Shown here in pieces: positions 149 through 63,416 of a DNA stretch of 64,000 nt. Each line of letters starts with the position of its first letter. Position 1 is the first letter of the stretch. The stretch is from an uncultured Candidatus Saccharibacteria bacterium (lineage in GTDB: Bacteria; Patescibacteriota; Saccharimonadia; Saccharimonadales; AWTP1-31). The translations under genes and the position numbers were made by a program. The stretch spans positions 451 to 64,450 of the forward strand of contig CALCZR010000056.1 in NCBI GenBank assembly GCA_937903325.1. The letters run 5' to 3'. Under the pieces are notes generated by a model. The model ran no database searches and was not told the origin of the DNA. It was given only the letters and a program-made list of their open reading frames with translations.

Positions 149-1258
149 TTAATAGCTATTGAAAATCGTCTCAAGTGTTGGCCACAAGGAATTTGTCTTG
201 TTGTACGGCACAGCATCTTGCTGGTAATACCACCAGAAATACCCTCCGACATATCGTGGGCCGAGTGCTGCTTTGAGACTGCCGTGCATGCCATAATAGC
301 GATTTGCGATCTGTTGCTTCTGGGTGAGCGTAGGGTCAGAAGGTAGACCATCAGTCGTGCCCTGTGCTCCAATTTCTCCCATGCCGATTTTTGCATGAGG
401 GAATATTGTTTGTAGCTGGCTAAAGATATCGATAAAGTTCTGGTTGGTCGGCGTCGCGCTGGGGTCACAAGCAGTTTCGTAGAAACTCAAGAATACGTAG
501 TCGACACCATTTTTAATATCACTGGACAAAGACTGTGCAAACGGTATGGTCTGCTCCCAGTTGTTCGAATAGCAATCGTGGCTAGGCCAGTAGTTTAATG
601 TAATGGCCGAGTTCAAATTCAAGCTCGCGTTATCTTTCTCGACGACGTCATATACTGCCTGTACTTTAGGTAGTACTGTCGCCGGGGTACCGACCCACTC
701 TCCGTTTAATTCGTTTCCGATCTCATATATATCGATCTTCTTGCCGTAAGTGTTTACGAAGTTCTGGGTACGCTGCGTATAACTGGCAAGACTGGTGTTC
801 TTGACGGCTGTTGAGTCAAGGATCTCACCCATGATATAACTCGTTCCTCGGAGGGTATCTACGGCCGCCGTGTAGTCGTTTGGTTGAGTGCCGTTCTGAA
901 ACACAATGCGGGTGATCGGCCTTTTGGTATGTCTGCTGAGTGAAGTGGTGAGCGCTGACAGGTCGCCAACGTCTTCGGTTGTTACTCCATATAGTGTATC
1001 CGGTACGGTACGACCGAGGGCTGCACTAAAAGCGTCAGAAGTAGTACCAAACTTAACAGCTTTCTTATTGCTTGTCTCAGAAACTTCTACAGAAGATGCA
1101 GTATTAGAGATGTTACCATCTTCAGCTTCAATGGACGCCGCAGGACTAGCGGCTTTAGAGAGCACAAGCGTGCCAATACCTATAATGACCAGTAGTACAG
1201 GGATGACAAAGCGAGCATGCTTGAGTACTATTCTATGTTTAGCAGAACGCCGTTTCAT
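149..1258 (-). CDS. Secreted or membrane-anchored glycoside-hydrolase-like protein (TIM-barrel, clan GH-A-like)
   Basis: Basic N-terminus plus a hydrophobic helix (FVIPVLLVIIGIGTLVL). IYEIGNELNGEW (N-E acid/base-type motif) and GMGEIG (nucleophile-type Glu) lie about 110 aa apart, as in GH-A hydrolases. The family cannot be assigned by eye. Confidence 0.5.
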   Translation of the reverse strand: MKRRSAKHRIVLKHARFVIPVLLVIIGIGTLVLSKAASPAASIEAEDGNISNTASSVEVSETSNKKAVKFGTTSDAFSAALGRTVPDTLYGVTTEDVGDLSALTTSLSRHTKRPITRIVFQNGTQPNDYTAAVDTLRGTSYIMGEILDSTAVKNTSLASYTQRTQNFVNTYGKKIDIYEIGNELNGEWVGTPATVLPKVQAVYDVVEKDNASLNLNSAITLNYWPSHDCYSNNWEQTIPFAQSLSSDIKNGVDYVFLSFYETACDPSATPTNQNFIDIFSQLQTIFPHAKIGMGEIGAQGTTDGLPSDPTLTQKQQIANRYYGMHGSLKAALGPRYVGGYFWWYYQQDAVPYNKTNSLWPTLETIFNSY

Positions 1259-15516: not shown

Positions 15517-15766
15517 GAGGTGATATGCAAATCTTTTGTACCAACCATTGGGGTGATCATCTATGAGTTATCTTACAGCTAACATTGACAGTTTCTTAAT
15601 AAAGTATTATTGTCTTATTTGACGTAAGACGTCGTGTGATGATCTGTTAACCTTTATATGGTCGCTTTGGTTTACAGGGAGCAAGTAGCGAAACCGGGAC
15701 GACTAAATCTCTTTGTAGAACTAGATTGGTCCTCATTATTAATCAATAAACGCTCTATATTTTAGT

Positions 15767-17008
15767 ATGCGTTATGGGAGAGAATTTATTATGGATGGAT
15801 CAGCCGGAAACGGATTTGAGATCACACCGGGTACCCTTGAGCTTCAGCTTCTTGCTGGCGCAGGTGCCCCAAACACGGACCCAGCGTTCGGTAGTGCCGC
15901 ACTACTTAACGGTGGCCCAGAAACACTAGCACCACAGGCTGCTATTGTTGAGGTTACGGCAAAACGTGACGCCGTTGAAGAAGCGGCAAATCTAAATGCA
16001 GACAACTCAGTCGTTGTACTGGGTGCTGAAGGCGATGTTGCTTTTGGTCGACTTGTAAGTACACGAATCATTGAGGTAGCAGAACCAGACGCAGAAGCTA
16101 CTGGGGACACAGAACCGACCCTTTCTTCCGTAGAAGCTAGCGCAGAATTTACACCTATGCCAAAAGTTACTGTTAAGCAGAATGTCTACTTCGTAGACGC
16201 CCGCGAAGGTAATGTACGATTGGTTATCAAGAACTGTGGTTTGGATGAGAACAACCGTGCTGTTGATTGTGAAAAGGATGCTTCTGTACACTTCCAAAAC
16301 GGAGTGCTACCAGAAGGTACTACGCGAGAACAAGCGCTTCCACGTGCTATCGCTGAGGGTCTCATGCCTGCAGGTTCTACTCAAGAGCAGCTAGACCAGG
16401 CCGGCAATGACGCCGCATTGCAAGCAGTGATTGACGGCAAGGAATACCTTCTTATTCGAGCTATGAACGTCGAGGGTGCTAGTGGCCAGATCACGGACAT
16501 TACCCTTGATAGTATCCGCCAGATCTTTGCTGAACAACATGGTTTTACTCCTACTGACGCACAACTAGAGAAGCTCGAGTTACGTCTCAATATTGAGAGT
16601 GCTGGGTGGAGTTCACTAGAAGAAGGTATCGAGCTAAAGCACGAGACAACCACAACTACAACTACCACATCTACGACTACTACTCCCCCTACGACTGTAC
16701 CTCCAACGTCTACGAGTACGACAACATCAACGACGCTTGTACCTCGGACTAGTACAACACTGGTTCAGCCACCAGTGACGGAGAAGCCTCCGGTTGAAGA
16801 AACAACCACAACTACAACTACCACAATAGTTACCCCTTCAGCTCCGCCAGAAACGGTAGCTACTACGGCTCCTGGTGAAACTCCACCATTCCTAGCCGTA
16901 GCGGGTGGTGAGGCGAAGCCAATGGGTGGTGGTGCGCTTGCAATGATCCTTCTTGGTGCGGCAGCACTTGGAGTTCGCGCTCGACGAGCTATGCGACGTA
17001 CTGTATAA
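15767..17008 (+). CDS. Acidic protein with a Thr/Pro-rich stalk and a C-terminal sorting-signal-like anchor
   Basis: 413 aa, with an alternative ATG at 15791 behind GGGAGAG. Poly-Thr/Pro region ETTTTTTTTSTTTTPPTTVPP...EETTTTTTTTIVTP. C-terminus LAVAG-GEAKPMGG-GALAMILLGAAALGV-RARRAMRRTV. No N-terminal signal peptide is visible. Confidence 0.65.
   Translation: MRYGREFIMDGSAGNGFEITPGTLELQLLAGAGAPNTDPAFGSAALLNGGPETLAPQAAIVEVTAKRDAVEEAANLNADNSVVVLGAEGDVAFGRLVSTRIIEVAEPDAEATGDTEPTLSSVEASAEFTPMPKVTVKQNVYFVDAREGNVRLVIKNCGLDENNRAVDCEKDASVHFQNGVLPEGTTREQALPRAIAEGLMPAGSTQEQLDQAGNDAALQAVIDGKEYLLIRAMNVEGASGQITDITLDSIRQIFAEQHGFTPTDAQLEKLELRLNIESAGWSSLEEGIELKHETTTTTTTTSTTTTPPTTVPPTSTSTTTSTTLVPRTSTTLVQPPVTEKPPVEETTTTTTTTIVTPSAPPETVATTAPGETPPFLAVAGGEAKPMGGGALAMILLGAAALGVRARRAMRRTV
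16646..16825 (+). repeat. Two copies of a 24-nt direct repeat inside the CDS, each encoding poly-Thr
   Basis: acaaccacaactacaactaccaca occurs at 16646-16669 and again at 16802-16825, both preceded by gaNa. Confidence 0.85.
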
Positions 17009-45029: not shown

Positions 45030-45635
45030 TTACTTGAGAGAAGTAATTATCTTGTCGGCAATACCGTAAGCAACTGCCTCTTTGGCAGTTAGCCACTTAT
45101 CTCGTTCCATATCGTCATGGATCTTGGCTGCTTTTTGTCCCGTATTCTTAGCCATAATGTCTTCCAGTAACTTCTTGATACGCAGGCTTTCACGGAGATC
45201 AATCTCTTGGTCGGTTACCTTACCACGGGTACCGCTACTTGGCTGATGAACCATGACGGTGGCGTTGGGCAGAATAGTTCGCTTACCTTTAGTACCAGAA
45301 CTTAACAAGAAGGCTGCCGCTGAGGCTTGTATACCTATACCAACGGTTTGTACATCATTGGATATGTACTGAATGGTGTCGTAAATAGCCAGGGCGTCGT
45401 ATACGCTGCCACCAGGACTATTGATGTAGAAGTAGATGTCTTTCTTTGGGTCTTCTGCGTGGAGGAAGAGTAGCTGCGCCACAATAACGTTGGCAGTGTG
45501 TTCGTTGACGCCATCTCCCAGGAAGATAATACGGTCTTTAAGTAGACGACTGTAAATGTCGTAGGCGCGCTCCATGCGGCCATCACTTTCGATAACGGTT
45601 GGGACAAGAGTTGAATAGCTAGTTAGATTGCTCAT
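45030..45635 (-). CDS. clpP: ATP-dependent Clp protease proteolytic subunit
   Basis: [19 protein letters not shown]...INSPGGSV...[11 protein letters not shown]...MVHQPS is typical of ClpP. Confidence 0.97.
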
Positions 45636-47253: not shown

Positions 47254-47976
47254 ATGGCTGACACTATTCCTATTCCTGCTGAAATTCTGGCTACTGATGT
47301 ACGACTAGGCGAGCCGGTACCTCTTCTTGATGGCCAGGTGTCTGCATATGGCGATCTTGATTTACTACAGCGTCTTGGTTTGACGAGCTTCACTCCCAGT
47401 ACCATTGCTTTTCGAGAGAAGGTTGAAAGACTTGCTGATCGTGATACTGCGGAATCACTTCACGATATGAACACGGGCGGCATGGTCGCGCGATACGGTG
47501 GCTTTGCAATTAAGTATTGTTGGGAAGCGCCTGCCATACAAGAGGGATTTATGTCCGAGGCTATGCGCCTTGGCCTAGCGGCTACTGAAGATGAAGTGGG
47601 TCATGGCATAACGGTACCCAAAATTGTAGCCTGTGTTTCTAGTCAGGATAGAGGGGTACTAGTCATGGGACATGTGCGAGGTCATCGACAAGTCGTGCAG
47701 TATGGACATGTGCTGAGCAATCGGTTTTTAAAGAATGGCAGTTTAAGGATACGGCTTTATCGAGATGCCCTCCGGGCGGTCGGACTTGCATGGCCGGCTG
47801 ATAATCTCGAAGTTACTGATTTTGATGACTACACCAAGAACACTCTTTGGCCTGCCAGCTTTTTCCCAGTTGGAGAAGGAGCTCTCCCGACAAGCAGTGT
47901 GCGCCTTGATTTCGGTATGATTGCCAAGCGCTTGCGTGAGCATTTAAGCCCACTGCTGCCAGGGCATACCGATTAA
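47254..47976 (+). CDS. Minimal protein-kinase-like protein (240 aa)
   Basis: GGFAIKY (beta3 Lys), SEAMRL (alphaC Glu), VLVMGHVRG (hinge-like), DFD-DYTK-N (D-x4-N catalytic loop) and RLDFG (DFG). The chain ends about 20 aa after DFG. Overlaps hisS convergently by 4 nt. Confidence 0.45.
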   Translation: MADTIPIPAEILATDVRLGEPVPLLDGQVSAYGDLDLLQRLGLTSFTPSTIAFREKVERLADRDTAESLHDMNTGGMVARYGGFAIKYCWEAPAIQEGFMSEAMRLGLAATEDEVGHGITVPKIVACVSSQDRGVLVMGHVRGHRQVVQYGHVLSNRFLKNGSLRIRLYRDALRAVGLAWPADNLEVTDFDDYTKNTLWPASFFPVGEGALPTSSVRLDFGMIAKRLREHLSPLLPGHTD

Positions 47977-49289: not shown

Positions 49290-49319
49290 GATTCCTGCTT
49301 ATTATAACTTACTGTTACT

Positions 49320-49451
49320 AAAAAACGCCGAGCTAATCGGCGTTTTACATGTAATGAAAAGCAACCGATTAGTCCGGCAGTATATGGATATGACGTTGAA
49401 TAGCGGGAATTGACATGCCAGTAGTATAGCTACAGATTGAATTCTGTACAA
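49320..49451 (-). promoter_or_regulatory. hisS leader: promoter, 15-codon His-containing mini-ORF, and mutually exclusive antiterminator and terminator
   Basis: On the minus strand: TTGTAC, 17 nt, TATACT (49451-49423). ATG at 49416 opens MSIPAIQRHIHILPD-stop (to 49369). CTAATCGG (49372-49365) is complementary to CCGATTAG (49340-49333) inside the terminator AAAACGCCG-attagct-CGGCGTTTTTT (49346-49320). Confidence 0.45.
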
Positions 49452-49517: not shown

Positions 49518-50216
49518 ATGAGTGAAGCCACTAGCCCAAAGCCAGTGAGTTCGTTTGACCTATTTTCTAAAAGCTGGGAGGCAGTACAACGCAACTTGGT
49601 TGTCTTTGCTATCCTGAGCGCCCCAACCTTAATTGGAACGGTACTTAGCCTCTTTATGTCTAATACCAACGAGCAATCCTTCACCAAAGCTACTGACTTC
49701 TTCGGAAATCAGTCAGGCCTGGCACTTGCTGGTCTAGCCGGTGGTGCAGTCGTCCTGACGATAGTACTGATGGTAGTGGGAGTGATCCTCCAAGCGCTTA
49801 TGTACATTGCACAGCTGCGTAGTGCAGAAGGCAAAACCATTACTTTAAGTGGCATATGGGAAGAAGCCAAAGGACAAATCCTCAAGCTCTTCGGTCTATC
49901 TATCGTTACGGGCATTATTACTGCCTTCAGCTTTATCTTGCTGATTATTCCTGGTTTTATCATGATGCGGCGCTACTTCTTGGCTCCATATCTCATGGTA
50001 GACAAGAAGCTCACTATCGGTGAGGCAATGGAACAAAGTGCAGCAATGAGCAAGCCATTCTCATGGTCAATCTACGGCATCATTGGGGTAACCTTCTTAA
50101 TTGGTCTTATTGGTATCGTTCCAGTAGTTGGTGGTATCGCAAGTACGCTCGCTGCTATTGCCTACTCAGTAGCACCGGCACTACGTTACCTTGAGCTCAA
50201 GAAAATGAGCGCGTAA
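49518..50216 (+). CDS. Integral membrane protein (about 5-6 TM helices, DUF975-like topology)
   Basis: AAGGAG SD. Multiple hydrophobic helices. No catalytic motif recognised. Confidence 0.6.
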   Translation: MSEATSPKPVSSFDLFSKSWEAVQRNLVVFAILSAPTLIGTVLSLFMSNTNEQSFTKATDFFGNQSGLALAGLAGGAVVLTIVLMVVGVILQALMYIAQLRSAEGKTITLSGIWEEAKGQILKLFGLSIVTGIITAFSFILLIIPGFIMMRRYFLAPYLMVDKKLTIGEAMEQSAAMSKPFSWSIYGIIGVTFLIGLIGIVPVVGGIASTLAAIAYSVAPALRYLELKKMSA

Positions 50217-50583: not shown

Positions 50584-50668
50584 TGGTGCGCGAGAAAGGA
50601 CTTGAACCTTCACGCCTTGCGGCACTAGCTCCTAAGGCTAGCGTGTCTACCAATTCCACCACTCGCGC
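50584..50668 (-). tRNA. tRNA-Leu (anticodon TAG), long variable arm, CCA encoded
   Basis: Reverse complement GCGCGAGTGGTGGAATTGGTAGACACGCTAGCCTTAGGAGCTAGTGCCGCAAGGCGTGAAGGTTCAAGTCCTTTCTCGCGCACCA, with anticodon loop CTTAGGA. Confidence 0.9.
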
Positions 50669-52566: not shown

Positions 52567-54606
52567 TTAGTTTAGGGTGGTTATGGCTCGCAATTTAGAA
52601 ACTCGGGCCGCCAGATACTTATATTGTACCAGGCTTTCGTGCTTATCGATAAACTGCTTAGCACTGTTACGTGCCAGCGACACTAGTTTAGTATCGGAAA
52701 GCTTAGCAATACGCAGATCTAATTGGCCGTGCTGCAGGGTGCCATATATAGCTCCCGGTCCACGTAACTCAAGATCTAGCTCGCTTAAGCGGAAGCCGTC
52801 GCTGGTCTGGGCAAAAGCTCGTAGACGCTTCGTTGGTGCCTTGGAATCCGTTAGTACTGGGTAGCAGTAGCCCTGGTGCGAACTTCGTCCGACACGACCC
52901 CGCAGCTGGTGCAACTGTGCTAGCCCAAATCGGTCGGCGTTCTGGATGACCATAACGGTGGCATTAGGCACGTCTACGCCCACTTCAATGACCGTGGTAC
53001 TTACTAGAATGTCATATTTCTTTTCGATGAAGTCTTGCATGACTTTAGCTTTTTCATCGCCCTTCATCTTGCCGTGCAGTAACCCTACGGATCGGTGCTT
53101 GAACGCACCCCTAGATAGATCGGTAAATGTTTTCTCGGCAGACTTTATCCCCTTGAGTACGAACGATTCGGCAACAAGTGGACAGACTACAAAGACTTGT
53201 CGACCCTGGGTAATCTGGGCATCCACTTTCTTGTAGAGCGTAGCTACCGAATTTGGTGATACAAGTTCAGTGACAATCTGCAGTCTGTTACTCGGCTTAC
53301 TAGCTACAACTGAGATGTCTAGCTCGCCATATAGAGTAAGCGCTAGGCTGCGCGGAATGGGTGTCGCTGTCATGGACAATACGTGTGGCATATGCCCGGC
53401 TTTGACTTGCAGTTTCTTACGTTGTTCGACACCAAAGCGGTGTTGTTCGTCGATAATAACGAGCCCCAATTTGTGGGTGCCTACTTTATCCTGGATGAGT
53501 GCATGGGTACCTACTACTAAGCGGACTTCCCCGCTCCTAAGCCGGCCCCGCACTGCATCTTTCTGTTTTGGTTTCATACTACCAACCAGCAGCGCCACTT
53601 GGTTCTCGTAGCCCAGCGGCCGCAATAGGTTATATATAGTTTCGGCGTGCTGTCGAGCCAGAAGTTCAGTAGGTGCCATAAAGGTAACTTGGTAACCCTG
53701 CTCCATAGCCATAAGAGCAGCCATTGTGGCAACAACAGTCTTACCAGAACCAACGTCTCCCTCTACCAGACGGTTCATGGGTTCTTTACGCTGCATATCC
53801 TGGTACAACTGCCAGATAACTCGACGCTGGTCGTCCGTTAAGGTAAATGGCAGATGGCTCACAAAATCTTTGGCTAGCTTTTCCTTAAACGGTACCGACA
53901 AAGCCGTTTCAGTACCCAGTTCCTGCTTGGTGAGTAGTGCGCTGAGCGTTAGTCCGAACACTTCCTCGAAGCCCAGGCGCTTGCGGGCCGCTTCGAGAAT
54001 CTCGGGTGTATCCGGAAAGTGGAGGCCCAATATGGCGCTACTGCGGCTAATGAGCTTCTGTTCTGCTATTAACCAGTCGGGTAGGGTCTCAGGTAGTTTA
54101 CTAATTAAAGGGGCTATCTCACGAATAGCCTTACGGATTTGAGTGGACTTGAGTCCTTTTGTTTCGGAGTAGATAGGTACGATCCGGGCAGTATTAACTG
54201 GAAAGTTACTTTCCTGCTCGGTGCTGGGGTTCATAATGGCCATGCGCTGGTGACTGAGCTCAAAGTTACCCGAAATGAAATAGCTCTGACCTGCTTTCAT
54301 ACCATTGGCCCGATATGGTTGGTTGAACCATACCAGGCGCACACTGCCAGTATCGTCACTGGCCACTGCTTCCGTTACATGCATACCCCGTCGCACATAT
54401 CGCCCAGTAAGCTGCTTGATGCTAGCTTGAATGGTAACCATGCCAGGCTTCAGAGCCTTAATAGGTGTAATTTCTGAATAGTCGTCGTATTTACGAGGGT
54501 AGTAGTCGATAAGGTCACCGACAGTAAAGATATTCAGTTGTTCAAATACTGAAGCGCCAGCCGGGCCAATACCCTTTACCTCCGTTAACGGGCTCGATAG
54601 AGTCAT
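52567..54606 (-). CDS. recG: ATP-dependent DNA helicase RecG
   Basis: N-terminal wedge domain, GDVGSGKT, DEQHRFG and QLRGRVGR helicase motifs. 679 aa. Confidence 0.95.
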   Translation of the reverse strand: MTLSSPLTEVKGIGPAGASVFEQLNIFTVGDLIDYYPRKYDDYSEITPIKALKPGMVTIQASIKQLTGRYVRRGMHVTEAVASDDTGSVRLVWFNQPYRANGMKAGQSYFISGNFELSHQRMAIMNPSTEQESNFPVNTARIVPIYSETKGLKSTQIRKAIREIAPLISKLPETLPDWLIAEQKLISRSSAILGLHFPDTPEILEAARKRLGFEEVFGLTLSALLTKQELGTETALSVPFKEKLAKDFVSHLPFTLTDDQRRVIWQLYQDMQRKEPMNRLVEGDVGSGKTVVATMAALMAMEQGYQVTFMAPTELLARQHAETIYNLLRPLGYENQVALLVGSMKPKQKDAVRGRLRSGEVRLVVGTHALIQDKVGTHKLGLVIIDEQHRFGVEQRKKLQVKAGHMPHVLSMTATPIPRSLALTLYGELDISVVASKPSNRLQIVTELVSPNSVATLYKKVDAQITQGRQVFVVCPLVAESFVLKGIKSAEKTFTDLSRGAFKHRSVGLLHGKMKGDEKAKVMQDFIEKKYDILVSTTVIEVGVDVPNATVMVIQNADRFGLAQLHQLRGRVGRSSHQGYCYPVLTDSKAPTKRLRAFAQTSDGFRLSELDLELRGPGAIYGTLQHGQLDLRIAKLSDTKLVSLARNSAKQFIDKHESLVQYKYLAARVSKLRAITTLN

Positions 54607-56142: not shown

Positions 56143-57396
56143 CTACAATTCTACGACCGCTTGACTGTTTTTGCCACGACGAAGCACCAGATGACCGTTA
56201 ATGGCATCTGAGGCCTTGAGCTCGGTCATGCTAGGATCAACCTGAACACCGTTGACGTAAATAGCCTTACTCTCGATAAAGCGACGAGCCTCACCCTTAG
56301 AAGAAGCGAGCTTAGCCTCGACAAGTGTGTCGATCAGGTTCGCAGGCGCCTTGGCTTGTATGACTGGCAGCTCTTGTTTAAGTATTGTGAAATCTGCTGC
56401 AGTCAGCTTGTCGTATGACACCCCACCAAATAGTACCTTACTTACTCTGGTAACGCTCTCGGCAGTTTCTTTGCCATGTACCATAGCCGTTACTTCGTAA
56501 GCCAGCGTCTTCTGAGCTAAACGAATATTTCGTTCTTCATTAAAGCGCTTCATAATGTCATCTACTTGGTCTTTAGTAAGTTCTGTGAATACCTTCAAGT
56601 AGTCTTCGACTCCTTCGTCGTCTGAATTGAGCCAGAACTGGTAGAACTGGTACGGGCTGGTCAGGCTTGCGTCGAGCCAGACAGCTCCCGCTTCGCTTTT
56701 CCCGAACTTCTTGCCCGTAGCCTTATTAATAATGAGTGGTGTACTCCAGACGTGGGCTTCTTTGCCAGTAAGGCGACGGATAAGGTCGACACCAGCAATG
56801 CTGTTACCCCATTGGTCGGAGCCACACAGTTGTAGGCTCGCGTTCTTGGACTTGGAGAGGTGCACAAAATCGTAGGCTTGGATGAGCACGTAGCTAAACT
56901 CGGCGTAACTAATACCAGAACCATCTTCACTGAGCCGTGATTGTACAAAGTCACGGCCGAGCATTTGACGCATAGGGACGTGCTTGCCGACATCACGGAG
57001 GAATTCTAGGTAGCCCAGGTCTTTGAACCAATCGTAGTTGTCGACAACTTCAAACTTGAGATCCCCAAAGATGGTTTGGTACTGGGCGACGATACCTGCT
57101 TTATTCTTGGCAATTTCCTCTAACGACTTGAGATTACGTTCGTCAGCTTTCCCGTCTGGATCCCCAATAAGACCTGTGGCGCCTCCGATTAAAATAATGG
57201 CTTTATGACCATGCTTAATAAAGCTCCGCACCATCATGGCAGCGGCTAAGTTGCCGACCTGCATAGAAGAAGCACTGGGGTCTACGCCGAAATAAAACGT
57301 CAAAGGTGGACCGTCTAACTGTTTGACATCTTTGAACGTGGTTTGATTAACGAAGCCTCGCCAGGCGAGCTCTTCGCTGAGAGTCATTTGTTTCAT
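56143..57396 (-). CDS. tyrS: Tyrosine--tRNA ligase
   Basis: Class I synthetase with a KFGKS (KMSKS-type) motif and a C-terminal S4-like domain. 417 aa. Confidence 0.93.
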   Translation of the reverse strand: MKQMTLSEELAWRGFVNQTTFKDVKQLDGPPLTFYFGVDPSASSMQVGNLAAAMMVRSFIKHGHKAIILIGGATGLIGDPDGKADERNLKSLEEIAKNKAGIVAQYQTIFGDLKFEVVDNYDWFKDLGYLEFLRDVGKHVPMRQMLGRDFVQSRLSEDGSGISYAEFSYVLIQAYDFVHLSKSKNASLQLCGSDQWGNSIAGVDLIRRLTGKEAHVWSTPLIINKATGKKFGKSEAGAVWLDASLTSPYQFYQFWLNSDDEGVEDYLKVFTELTKDQVDDIMKRFNEERNIRLAQKTLAYEVTAMVHGKETAESVTRVSKVLFGGVSYDKLTAADFTILKQELPVIQAKAPANLIDTLVEAKLASSKGEARRFIESKAIYVNGVQVDPSMTELKASDAINGHLVLRRGKNSQAVVEL

Positions 57397-62435: not shown

Positions 62436-63416
62436 TTACTGAACTGTGTCAGTCGTTGTCTGGATGCGACTATCCAATGCTTTATTGAGTTCTTGTGCTT
62501 CCACGGCTACGGCATTACGTTCGTCAAGGATAGCCTTGTACTGGTCAACGAGGGTTTGGGTCTGTCCCTGCAGAACCCTAAATGGTTGTAGGCTCTGATT
62601 GTATGCATCTACGCCCGCGTTGTACTCAGCGATCTGGTTCTGTTGCCGCAGAGTGGTAAGCCGTGCAGCCTCGGCATCTATAGCGACTTTCTGGGCCTTG
62701 AGAGTTTCGTTATTGGCAGTCACCTGCTTCTCAATTTCTTCGAGTTGTTTATCGAGTTCTGCCACTCTATTCTTACGACTCGTAAACTCAGCTTGGTATT
62801 GTGCTGCTAGCTTGACGACGGTTGCTCGATTTTCAAAATACTGTTTGTAGTAGGTTTCAAGTTCTGGCGGCAAGTTAGCAACTTCGGTCCCTAGGATTGA
62901 GTGCAGCTCATTAGTGATGTCTGCCCCACTCTGCTTATACAGGTCGATCTTATCCTGTATTCCCTTGTCGTTTAGTGATGCATACGTGTCGTTTAGGAGC
63001 TTGGTAACACGGCGCTGCTGAGTAAAGTCAAGACGACCATATGCAGCATGCAGCATCTCATGGGCGGCAGTTACTTCTTCGACACCTGCCAGTCGCTGGT
63101 CATCTACTTTGAGTAGATATATACCGCGGCCTGGTTTGTAGCAGCCGAGGACTATGGTGGTTTCCCCTTCTTCGCAGCTGACATAGAACGCTGTTTTCTC
63201 TTGGACGGCTGGTTTGCTGACGTAGAAGATTCGGCGACCCTTGTCTGTCATCTCGGCATTGGTGGCCAGTGACGTTATGGTCACAGATGGTCGGTAGTCA
63301 CGTAGTTGCCACCAATCTTGGATGTTCTGACGTTGCCAGAAACCAATGCTGACAGCGGCGATGACGGAAACGTAAAACAGAACTCTGGAAAGCCGCAATC
63401 GTTTCTTTGGTTGCAT
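62436..63416 (-). CDS. Membrane-anchored HExxH protein with a long C-terminal coiled coil
   Basis: N-terminal TM helix VLFYVSVIAAVSIGFW. TAAHEMLHAAYG (HExxH). About 130 aa of heptad-like Q/E/A/L-rich sequence at the C-terminus. Confidence 0.55.
   Translation of the reverse strand: MQPKKRLRLSRVLFYVSVIAAVSIGFWQRQNIQDWWQLRDYRPSVTITSLATNAEMTDKGRRIFYVSKPAVQEKTAFYVSCEEGETTIVLGCYKPGRGIYLLKVDDQRLAGVEEVTAAHEMLHAAYGRLDFTQQRRVTKLLNDTYASLNDKGIQDKIDLYKQSGADITNELHSILGTEVANLPPELETYYKQYFENRATVVKLAAQYQAEFTSRKNRVAELDKQLEEIEKQVTANNETLKAQKVAIDAEAARLTTLRQQNQIAEYNAGVDAYNQSLQPFRVLQGQTQTLVDQYKAILDERNAVAVEAQELNKALDSRIQTTTDTVQ

Follow-up and report, generated by a model that had tools for sequence, protein, structure and literature searches.

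The hisS Leader of the Window

The 64,000-nucleotide stretch of DNA analysed here (the window; contig CALCZR010000056.1 of an uncultured Candidatus Saccharibacteria bacterium) carries on its minus strand hisS, the gene for histidine–tRNA ligase, whose assignment in an earlier interpretation made from the letters alone (the sequence-only reading) is borne out by the family model TIGR00442 (E value 2.5e-103; 346 bits as compared with a cut-off of 287). hisS is preceded by a leader of about 97 nucleotides (nt), counted from the ATG of a short open reading frame (mini-ORF) with histidine codons to the end of the U tract of an intrinsic terminator, which ends 30 nt before the hisS ATG (49289). From its conservation in related genomes and its predicted folding, this leader is probably a histidine-responsive, ribosome-mediated transcription attenuator of hisS. 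The upstream neighbour gene (49518–50216) is on the plus strand, so that the leader sits in a divergent intergenic region and its hairpin cannot terminate a preceding gene. A role of the hairpin as terminator of the upstream gene was rejected for this reason, and a role as plus-strand terminator is unlikely because no plus-strand gene ends nearby.

The sequence-only reading had placed in this leader a promoter, a mini-ORF with two His codons, a terminator and an antiterminator strand, and each of its coordinates was found to be correct to the base on the minus strand (Table 1). In the following, four segments are distinguished, their pairings being written 1:2, 2:3, 3:4 and 1:4. As had been noted before, CTAATCGG (49372–49365) is the exact complement of CCGATTAG (49340–49333), and the complementarity is longer than was then recognized: UGCCGG (49379–49374) pairs with UCGGCG (49331–49326), with the consequence that the naked window RNA folds as one long hairpin, which still abuts the U tract. 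The duplex of segments 2 and 3 has an energy of −13.1 kcal/mol as compared with −4.2 ± 1.9 kcal/mol for shuffled sequences, none of 300 shuffles being as strong.

Table 1. Positions of the elements of the hisS leader in the window, and of hisG genes near hisS in related loci (own numbering of each locus).
Feature	Position	Strand	Remarks
−35-like hexamer of promoter P1, TTGTAC	49451–49446	−	Direct reading; overlapping promoter-like site in consensus scan
−10 hexamer of promoter P1, TATACT	49428–49423	−	17 nt from −35; 6 nt upstream of mini-ORF ATG (leaderless layout)
Leader mini-ORF, MSIPAIQRHIHILPD-stop, 15 codons	49416–49369 (ATG 49416–49414; TAA 49371–49369)	−	Direct reading
Putative regulatory His codons, CAT-ATC-CAT	49392–49384 (CAT 49392–49390; CAT 49386–49384)	−	Last CAT exactly 5 nt before segment 1
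Segment 1, (U)GCCGG	49379–49374	−	Pairs with segment 4, or weakly with segment 2; predicted to be maskable by a ribosome stalled on the last His codon
Segment 2, antiterminator strand, CUAAUCGGU	49372–49364	−	Stop codon inside; pairs with 49341–49333
U-rich tract following weak 1:2 hairpin (UGCUUUUCAUUA)	49363–49352	−	Scan calls GCCGGACTAATCGGT plus TGCTTTTCAT terminator-like
Intrinsic terminator, AAAACGCCG-ATTAGCT-CGGCGTTTTTT (3' part as RNA: CGGCGUUUUUU)	49346–49320	−	9-bp stem, ΔG −12.3
Terminator, segment 3	49346–49338	−	Direct reading
Terminator, loop (AUUAGCU)	49337–49331	−	Direct reading
Terminator, segment 4	49330–49326	−	Direct reading
Terminator, U6	49325–49320	−	Direct reading
−10-like TATAAT, possible proximal promoter P2	49306–49301	−	11 nt upstream of hisS ATG
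Shine-Dalgarno-like AGGA of hisS	49296–49293	−	Direct reading; serves only transcripts starting upstream of AGGA
hisS, histidine–tRNA ligase, 438 amino acids, putatively regulated gene	49289–47973	−	TIGR00442
hisG next to hisS	L067 1078–2981 (hisD between); L098 679–1476; L046 328–1212; L047 448–1245; L034 2360–2950; L108 1085–1504		

A Family of Modules in Saccharibacteria

Relatives of hisS in genome and metagenome collections all belong to Saccharibacteria/Saccharimonadia (TM7, Patescibacteria), the best HisS being 84% identical to that of the window and most others 60–74%. Upstream of these genes a module recurs in which an ATG-initiated His mini-ORF, GCCGG (segment 1), a short loop, TCGG(T) (segment 2), a stop codon, a spacer and a terminator of the pattern CGCCGG-loop-CCGGCG-U tract (segments 3 and 4) follow each other in this order. 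A covariance model (R1), built from an alignment (A1) of 21 module copies, has matches in 40 out of 160 hisS loci of relatives (cited below by their L numbers) with 38–85 bits and E values as low as 2e-20, all 40 matches lying upstream of hisS and on the same strand; in the window R1 has a single match (49315–49398; 66.4 bits; E value 5.7e-15). The U tract at the terminator is kept in 37 of the 40 members. An alignment of the upstream regions of relatives, which had been suggested together with the sequence-only reading, thus brought out conservation of the mini-ORF, of the His codons and of the complementary segments.

Rfam was scanned with the leader region (by E value), with the whole window (at the gathering scores) and with five related loci (by E value), and for the module yielded only terminator-level noise, the best match being sroD with 25 bits as compared with a gathering score of 50. 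A literature search found no report of a cis-regulatory attenuator for Saccharibacteria or Patescibacteria. Judged from these comparisons, the modules very probably form a previously undescribed family.

Of 39 modules, 38 have an ATG-initiated ORF that reads the His codons, as compared with three and two in the other two frames, and this ORF carries the motif H-H-x-H. Counting from the last His codon as position 0 (5 nt before segment 1), His is found at position 0 in 39 of the 40 covariance-model hits, at position −2 in 33/39 and at position −3 in 25/39, whereas the codon at position −1 is free to vary (L, S, I, A, T, V, R and others). Exchanges between CAT and CAC at the His codons are synonymous, and in L047, which has retained one His, it is the His at position 0 that has been kept. 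From the last His codon to GCCGG the distance is exactly 5 nt in all members. The stop codon follows directly after segment 2 in 30 of 38 modules; in the window, L011 and L021 it is in the 1:2 loop, just before segment 2 of the family pattern.

In 28 of 38 modules a −10 box, often extended (TGn), is located 6–9 nt upstream of the mini-ORF ATG (mode 7 nt), and there is no Shine-Dalgarno site, which together are the signature of a leaderless mRNA. It is plausible that the mini-ORF is translated from such an mRNA. The small number of His codons and the leaderless start had both been named as reservations in the sequence-only reading; by the comparative data both are conserved features of the family, the leaderless start itself being a prediction from promoter position. 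The same layout is seen in front of six other genes of the window (149–1258, 29955–30239, 45030–45635, 52567–54606, 56143–57396 and 62436–63416, all on the minus strand), where TATACT, TATATT or TATAGT, in some cases with TGn, is found 6–8 nt before the start codon and a Shine-Dalgarno site is missing; genes inside operons have AAGGAG-type sites instead. To judge by these genes, leaderless mRNAs seem to be common in the genome.

There is some variation in the upstream part of the module. Three members lie behind a tRNA-Leu gene, and one of them, L027, has an AGGAG Shine-Dalgarno site in place of the leaderless promoter. The hisS unit has a tRNA-Leu(UAG) gene in synteny upstream of it in the window (50584–50668, minus strand) and in L001, L003, L017, L027 and L034, and in L017, L027 and L034 the mini-ORF starts roughly 10–25 nt past the tRNA gene (ARAGORN call). 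In L151, L067, L071, L046, L054, L032 and L124, P1 has a perfect TTGACA only 7 nt upstream of the −10 box, within the conserved TTGACAnnAGTGGTATAAT, whereas in the other members the −35 and −10 boxes have a normal spacing of 16–19 nt.

Two Mutually Exclusive Pairings under Selection

Column-based covariation in a MAFFT alignment was uninformative for 1:2 and 3:4, the signal being weak because the CCGG cores are almost invariant, and the 2:3 pairs are bulged and have no fixed columns. A partner test was therefore used instead, in which the duplex energy that a module reaches with its own segments is compared with that reached with segments from other modules (n = 40; 50,000 permutations). For 2:3 the means are −11.12 kcal/mol (own) and −7.64 kcal/mol (other), for 3:4 they are −14.37 and −12.22 kcal/mol, and in both cases none of the 50,000 permutations gave such a difference; for 1:4 they are −13.82 and −12.67 kcal/mol (2/50,000 permutations). 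In addition, changes in the terminator loop are matched by changes in the nucleotides 5' of segment 2. For example, the two are CTAA/TTAG in the window, TGAT/ATCA in L003, TAAC/GTTA in L011, TCG/CGA in L050 and GTT/GAC in L027.

The pairing of complementary octamers that was seen in the window is thus one instance of a 2:3 pairing that changes together with the terminator loop across genomes, and the two pairings that segment 3 can enter, 2:3 and 3:4, which had been described as mutually exclusive, are both under selection. Selection on two mutually exclusive pairings of the same segment is the hallmark of a switch.

Folding with Ribosome Masks and the Proposed Mechanism

When partition functions are calculated for the window leader with a ribosome mask at the last His codon, the probability of the terminator pairing, P(3:4), is 0.25 and the antiterminator forms; with the mask at the stop codon P(3:4) is 0.94. 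This is the behaviour that the sequence-only reading had predicted. Across the family, the stop-codon mask gives the 3:4 terminator in 38 of 39 members. The naked RNA, on the other hand, forms the long hairpin (1:4 plus 2:3) with P(3:4) of about 0 in 33 of 39 members, segment 4 being still paired beside the U tract. In the masked folds the terminator hairpin does not pair with the AGGA/ATG region of hisS. The classical attenuation logic that had been assumed is therefore supported for the window, with a refinement: the alternative fold adopted without a ribosome is still terminator-shaped, and 2:3 antiterminates only when segment 1 is masked.

The mechanism that we propose is as follows. P1 would yield a leaderless RNA starting at or beside the AUG of the 15-codon leader ORF. 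When His-tRNA(His) is scarce, the ribosome would stall with the last His codon (49386–49384) in the A site, a position in which, from standard footprint geometry, it would cover segment 1 and leave segment 2 free. Free segment 2 (CUAAUCGG) would then pair with the 5' arm and loop of the terminator (CCGAUUAG) once these are transcribed, and segment 4 would be left partnerless, whereupon RNA polymerase would cross the U tract and read into hisS. When His-tRNA is ample, the ribosome would reach the UAA inside segment 2 and cover this segment; 3:4 would form and transcription would end at about 49320. If no ribosome is present, 1:4 would extend 2:3 into the long hairpin adjoining the U tract, which would make termination the default state. 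The U-rich tract at 49363–49352 together with the weak 1:2 hairpin may be a pause site of RNA polymerase that synchronizes the polymerase with the ribosome; U-rich GTTAGTTT/GTTGCTTT is found 3' of segment 2 in most modules. The sequence elements of this scheme, their conservation, the kept reading frame and spacing, the covariation of 2:3, 3:4 and 1:4 and the link with his genes are observed; predicted are the leaderless start, the stalling, the kinetics and how strongly hisS is affected.

Genes behind the Module

The module is located 24–82 nt upstream of hisS in 21 cases, including the window. In 20 loci it leads one to three co-oriented genes that are in turn followed by hisS, and there the terminator is followed after 20–35 nt by a Shine-Dalgarno site and an ATG. 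In at least 6 of these 20 loci the gene behind the module encodes HisG (ATP phosphoribosyltransferase), which in L098, L046 and L047 is fused to a PRA-PH/HisE domain. In L067 the order is module, hisG, the gene for histidinol dehydrogenase (hisD; E value 3.5e-161) and hisS. Since the same His-codon module thus stands in front of genes of histidine biosynthesis, there is independent functional support for histidine specificity, which the sequence-only reading had proposed from the window. The presence of hisG and hisD beside hisS is unexpected in a group that is usually described as being without amino-acid biosynthesis. HisS might serve as the HisZ partner of the short HisG proteins in these Saccharibacteria.

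Other genes found between module and hisS encode proteins of the families Peptidase_M15 (L140, L147, L151) and Peptidase_S66 (L124, L032), an AstE/AspA-like protein (L077), a DUF6282 amidohydrolase (L015, L078) and an SLOG/LOG protein (L054, L071), which may be histidine-salvage enzymes. ORFs without a Pfam match occupy the same position in L001 (2321–2989), L077 (1616–2278), L015 (1393–2073) and L032 (1191–1988). We propose tentatively, as a possibility rather than as an expectation, that the family defines a histidine regulon in episymbiotic Saccharibacteria, with their reduced genomes, and follows the logic of a ribosome-masked clamp: segment 1, by pairing with segment 4 (1:4), would make 2:3 part of a long terminator unless a His-stalled, leaderless-initiated ribosome covers segment 1.

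Arguments against Attenuation and Alternative Explanations

There are several points that weigh against attenuation as set out above. The window has only two His codons, and these are not adjacent. The 1:2 pairing shows no covariation signal in the partner test, the energies being −6.63 kcal/mol with the own and −6.74 kcal/mol with other segments (n = 40). At equilibrium the terminator is lost under the His-stall mask in no more than 10 of 39 members, including the window, and in an earlier set of masked folds the mask favoured antitermination in 7 of 14. We therefore do not propose a thermodynamic switch for the family as a whole; the other members would need kinetic read-through, in which 2:3 is formed ahead of the synthesis of segment 4, as in the classical trp attenuator. 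For every family member the evidence consists of sequence comparison and predicted folding, and attenuation presupposes both transcription–translation coupling and leaderless initiation in Saccharibacteria, which are putative.

Two further points concern the hisS-proximal modules. Between terminator and hisS there is a −10-like box (TGnTAcAAT/TATAAT) in 21 of 21 hisS-proximal cases, whereas such a box is absent between terminator and next gene where the module precedes other genes. It is therefore probable that hisS is also transcribed at a basal level from P2 and that the attenuator acts on no more than the share of transcription coming from the upstream promoter P1, to which it would give a histidine-responsive component; some of the hisS mRNA, and perhaps the larger fraction, may arise without passing the attenuator. 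Moreover, there are decayed copies, in which the frame is lost (L006), the U tract is missing (L068, L073) or the position-0 His is missing (L096), and all of them are hisS-proximal, which hints at relaxed selection in some lineages.

Both of these observations also favour the strongest of the alternatives, according to which the module is a relic of evolution: it would once have headed an ancestral his operon (hisG... hisS) and, when the genes between were lost, have come to stand before a hisS driven by P2, so that the terminator would here be little more than an insulator and would not regulate hisS to any meaningful degree. So does the situation in L001, the closest relative (HisS 84% identical), where a distance of 746 nt, containing another gene, separates the module from hisS (an inverted synteny was considered in this context and rejected, the divergent window gene 49518–50216 not being a homologue of the L001 gene between module and hisS). 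We nevertheless regard a relic as unlikely. The window copy is intact: the promoter is there, the ORF is in frame and has His at positions 0 and also −2, the antiterminator of 8 bp is perfect, the terminator with its U6 is strong, and the covariance model gives 66.4 bits. In most hisS-proximal copies, which come with HisS proteins only 60–74% identical, ORF and spacing are likewise preserved and 2:3 still co-varies, which requires continued selection. Furthermore, the Shine-Dalgarno-like AGGA in front of hisS would be carried by read-through transcripts and not by transcripts from P2.

Another explanation is that the module is a free-standing small gene, which either encodes a functional His micropeptide (..TN.HH.H[ILM][SL]PE.[VI]G) or gives rise to a terminated RNA of ~97 nt acting in trans, like rnTrpL/peTrpL in Sinorhizobium; the terminator would then do no more than close this gene. 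The module has its own promoter and its own terminator, the peptides are similar also outside the His codons (T-N before, P-E-x-V-G after), and dual-function attenuator RNAs and peptides have a precedent (PMC6614838, PMC7298713). It is the structured segments 1 and 2, however, that code for P-E-x-V-G, so that constraints on the RNA explain the peptide similarity there, and the peptides of the window, L011 and L021 stop before it. A small gene also does not predict that its 3' coding end co-varies with the terminator loop or that it is strictly co-oriented upstream of hisS, hisG and hisD, and in the 20 loci mentioned above the Shine-Dalgarno site and the gene directly follow the terminator with no promoter between. 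This explanation is thus improbable; and a role in trans could coexist with attenuation in cis rather than replace it.

Still less probable in our estimation is an element that operates without the ribosome, the palindrome (1:4 plus 2:3) being bound by a protein or, T-box-like, by uncharged tRNA(His), or being a plain long-stem terminator, with the ORF as an incidental feature. Without a ribosome, the window leader and 33 of 39 members do have the long hairpin as their minimum-free-energy fold, 1:4 is partner-specific, and the hairpin is terminator-like on the plus strand, too. There is, however, no T-box, His_leader or other Rfam match, even at E values up to 10, and with ~100 nt the leader is too short for a T-box. 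Neither the frame conservation (38/39 versus 3 and 2) nor the synonymous His changes nor the exact 5-nt spacing are predicted by an RNA-only element, and the independently selected 3:4 pairing conflicts with a single static long hairpin. Finally, one may think of pure chance, a common hairpin close to a gene start having come together with a fortuitous short ORF and a fortuitous complement of 8 nt. In favour of this it could be said that two His in 15 codons plus one 8-mer complement are weak evidence alone and that the leader fold has a z-score of no more than about −2. Chance is, however, refuted by the 40 homologous modules (lowest E value 2e-20), which without exception have the same genomic position relative to hisS, and by the permutation and frame tests.

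Further Observations on the Window

No further "orphan" leader terminators or module copies were found in the 64-kb window besides the hisS leader. The leader sequence is base-for-base identical in two independent assemblies (L161 and L162), short contigs found by an exact-protein look-up, which besides these two revealed no intermediate relatives. Both assemblies, identical in hisS and leader, stop at window position 49443 within the P1 spacer, which may be a strain-variable junction upstream of the leader. On the plus strand the hairpin at 49320–49346 has a ΔG of −14.1 and is followed by TTTT; it could halt antisense transcription through hisS before the gene at 49518. At its 3' end hisS overlaps by 4 nt with a convergent ORF for 240 amino acids (47254–47976, plus strand), a gene call in the public assembly for which there is no Pfam or NCBIfam match. 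Elsewhere in the window, at 15623–15708 (plus strand), Rfam finds a c-di-GMP-II-GAG riboswitch aptamer (45.9 bits as compared with a gathering score of 40) ~60 nt upstream of the ORF 15767–17008 (plus strand), a cyclic-dinucleotide riboswitch in a Saccharibacteria genome.

Implications

If attenuation of hisS by the translating ribosome is confirmed, the module would be among the first concrete regulatory mechanisms for Patescibacteria and would speak indirectly for transcription–translation coupling and for leaderless initiation in these ultrasmall cells. It would also mean that organisms thought to lack most of amino-acid synthesis still sense the charging of tRNA-His, and that they adjust hisS accordingly, some lineages also hisG/hisD and several peptidases or amidohydrolases, which would become testable genes of histidine acquisition. 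Should also the more tentative clamp regulon prove true, the M15 and S66 peptidases, the AstE/AspA-like deacylase, the DUF6282 amidohydrolase and the LOG/SLOG protein would be candidates for histidine salvage from host peptides or conjugates. The element would in that case be the first native amino-acid-tunable expression switch for Patescibacteria genetics. An inducible expression system for Patescibacteria is yet to be developed (2024 perspective, PMC11665869), and a native cassette of about 130 nt that is predicted to be histidine-responsive is a candidate. And the design space of attenuators would be widened by the nested 1:4/2:3 versus 3:4 layout and by the coupling of a leaderless sensor ORF to an intrinsic terminator.

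Comparison with Known Systems

With trpL and hisL, the classical attenuators of enterobacterial amino-acid operons, the module has no homology in sequence or structure, but it shares with them a short ORF containing codons for the amino acid that is sensed, a terminator with a mutually exclusive antiterminator, a stop codon placed such that the terminating ribosome would cover the antiterminator strand, and termination as the predicted default. It resembles trp in that there are only two to three regulatory codons and in that 3:4 is thermodynamically stronger than 2:3 in most members. The ORF of the module is apparently leaderless, however, whereas those of the classical attenuators are Shine-Dalgarno-led; the 1:2 pairing is weak and without covariation, and in the absence of a ribosome 1:4 extends 2:3 to a long terminator-shaped hairpin; and the host phylum is a different one, Patescibacteria. 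In place of the run of seven His codons in hisL there is H-H-x-H, and the Rfam family His_leader (RF00514) had no match in cmscan with E values up to 10 for the window region and up to 1 for the five related loci.

The pheST operon of Escherichia coli, which encodes an aminoacyl-tRNA synthetase, is controlled by a leader-peptide attenuator with a Shine-Dalgarno-led leader. There, as is proposed for the module, attenuation acts on an aminoacyl-tRNA synthetase gene rather than on a biosynthetic operon, and it is the charging of the cognate tRNA that is sensed. The two differ in the amino acid, are unrelated in sequence, and the module has in addition the −10-like box between terminator and hisS.

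Outside the Proteobacteria, His leader peptides have been predicted before a Bacillus hisS paralogue and hisZ (Naville and Gautheret 2010, PMC2965389) and before the his operons of the B. cereus group, Peptostreptococcaceae and Erysipelotrichales (PMC9413887). These leaders of Firmicutes, known from comparative genomics only, likewise combine a His-codon ORF with a terminator and antiterminator, in one case before a gene of the hisS family. They have 3–5 consecutive His codons, however, and occur in unrelated lineages, the sequence relationship to the module having been tested through Rfam only; Saccharibacteria and Patescibacteria were outside the scope of both studies.

With respect to the start of the ORF, a counterpart is found in mycobacteria, where leaderless short ORFs with poly-Cys act as attenuators of translation by unmasking a ribosome-binding site (Canestrari et al., bioRxiv 10.1101/834739). 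Those systems have a leaderless short ORF as first cistron and stalling at codons for the sensed amino acid that remodels the downstream RNA, both of which are predicted for the module; in contrast to the output in mycobacteria, the output element of the module is a hairpin followed by a U tract, an intrinsic terminator of transcription that ends 30 nt upstream of the hisS ATG.

T-box riboswitches, the usual control of hisS in Firmicutes, have the same signal (charging of tRNA-His), the same target gene and the same kind of output by terminator and antiterminator. They differ in that a T-box leader has about 200 nt or more, as compared with ~100 nt in the module, and in that the module is predicted to sense by means of the translating ribosome and not by direct binding of the tRNA; T-box (RF00230) had no match in the window or in the five related loci at gathering or E-value thresholds. 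As deduced from its sequence, the module appears to be distinctive in joining a leaderless sensor ORF to an intrinsic terminator, in the nested layout of 1:4/2:3 versus 3:4, in its H-H-x-H motif, in having an aminoacyl-tRNA synthetase gene as target, and in its host phylum.

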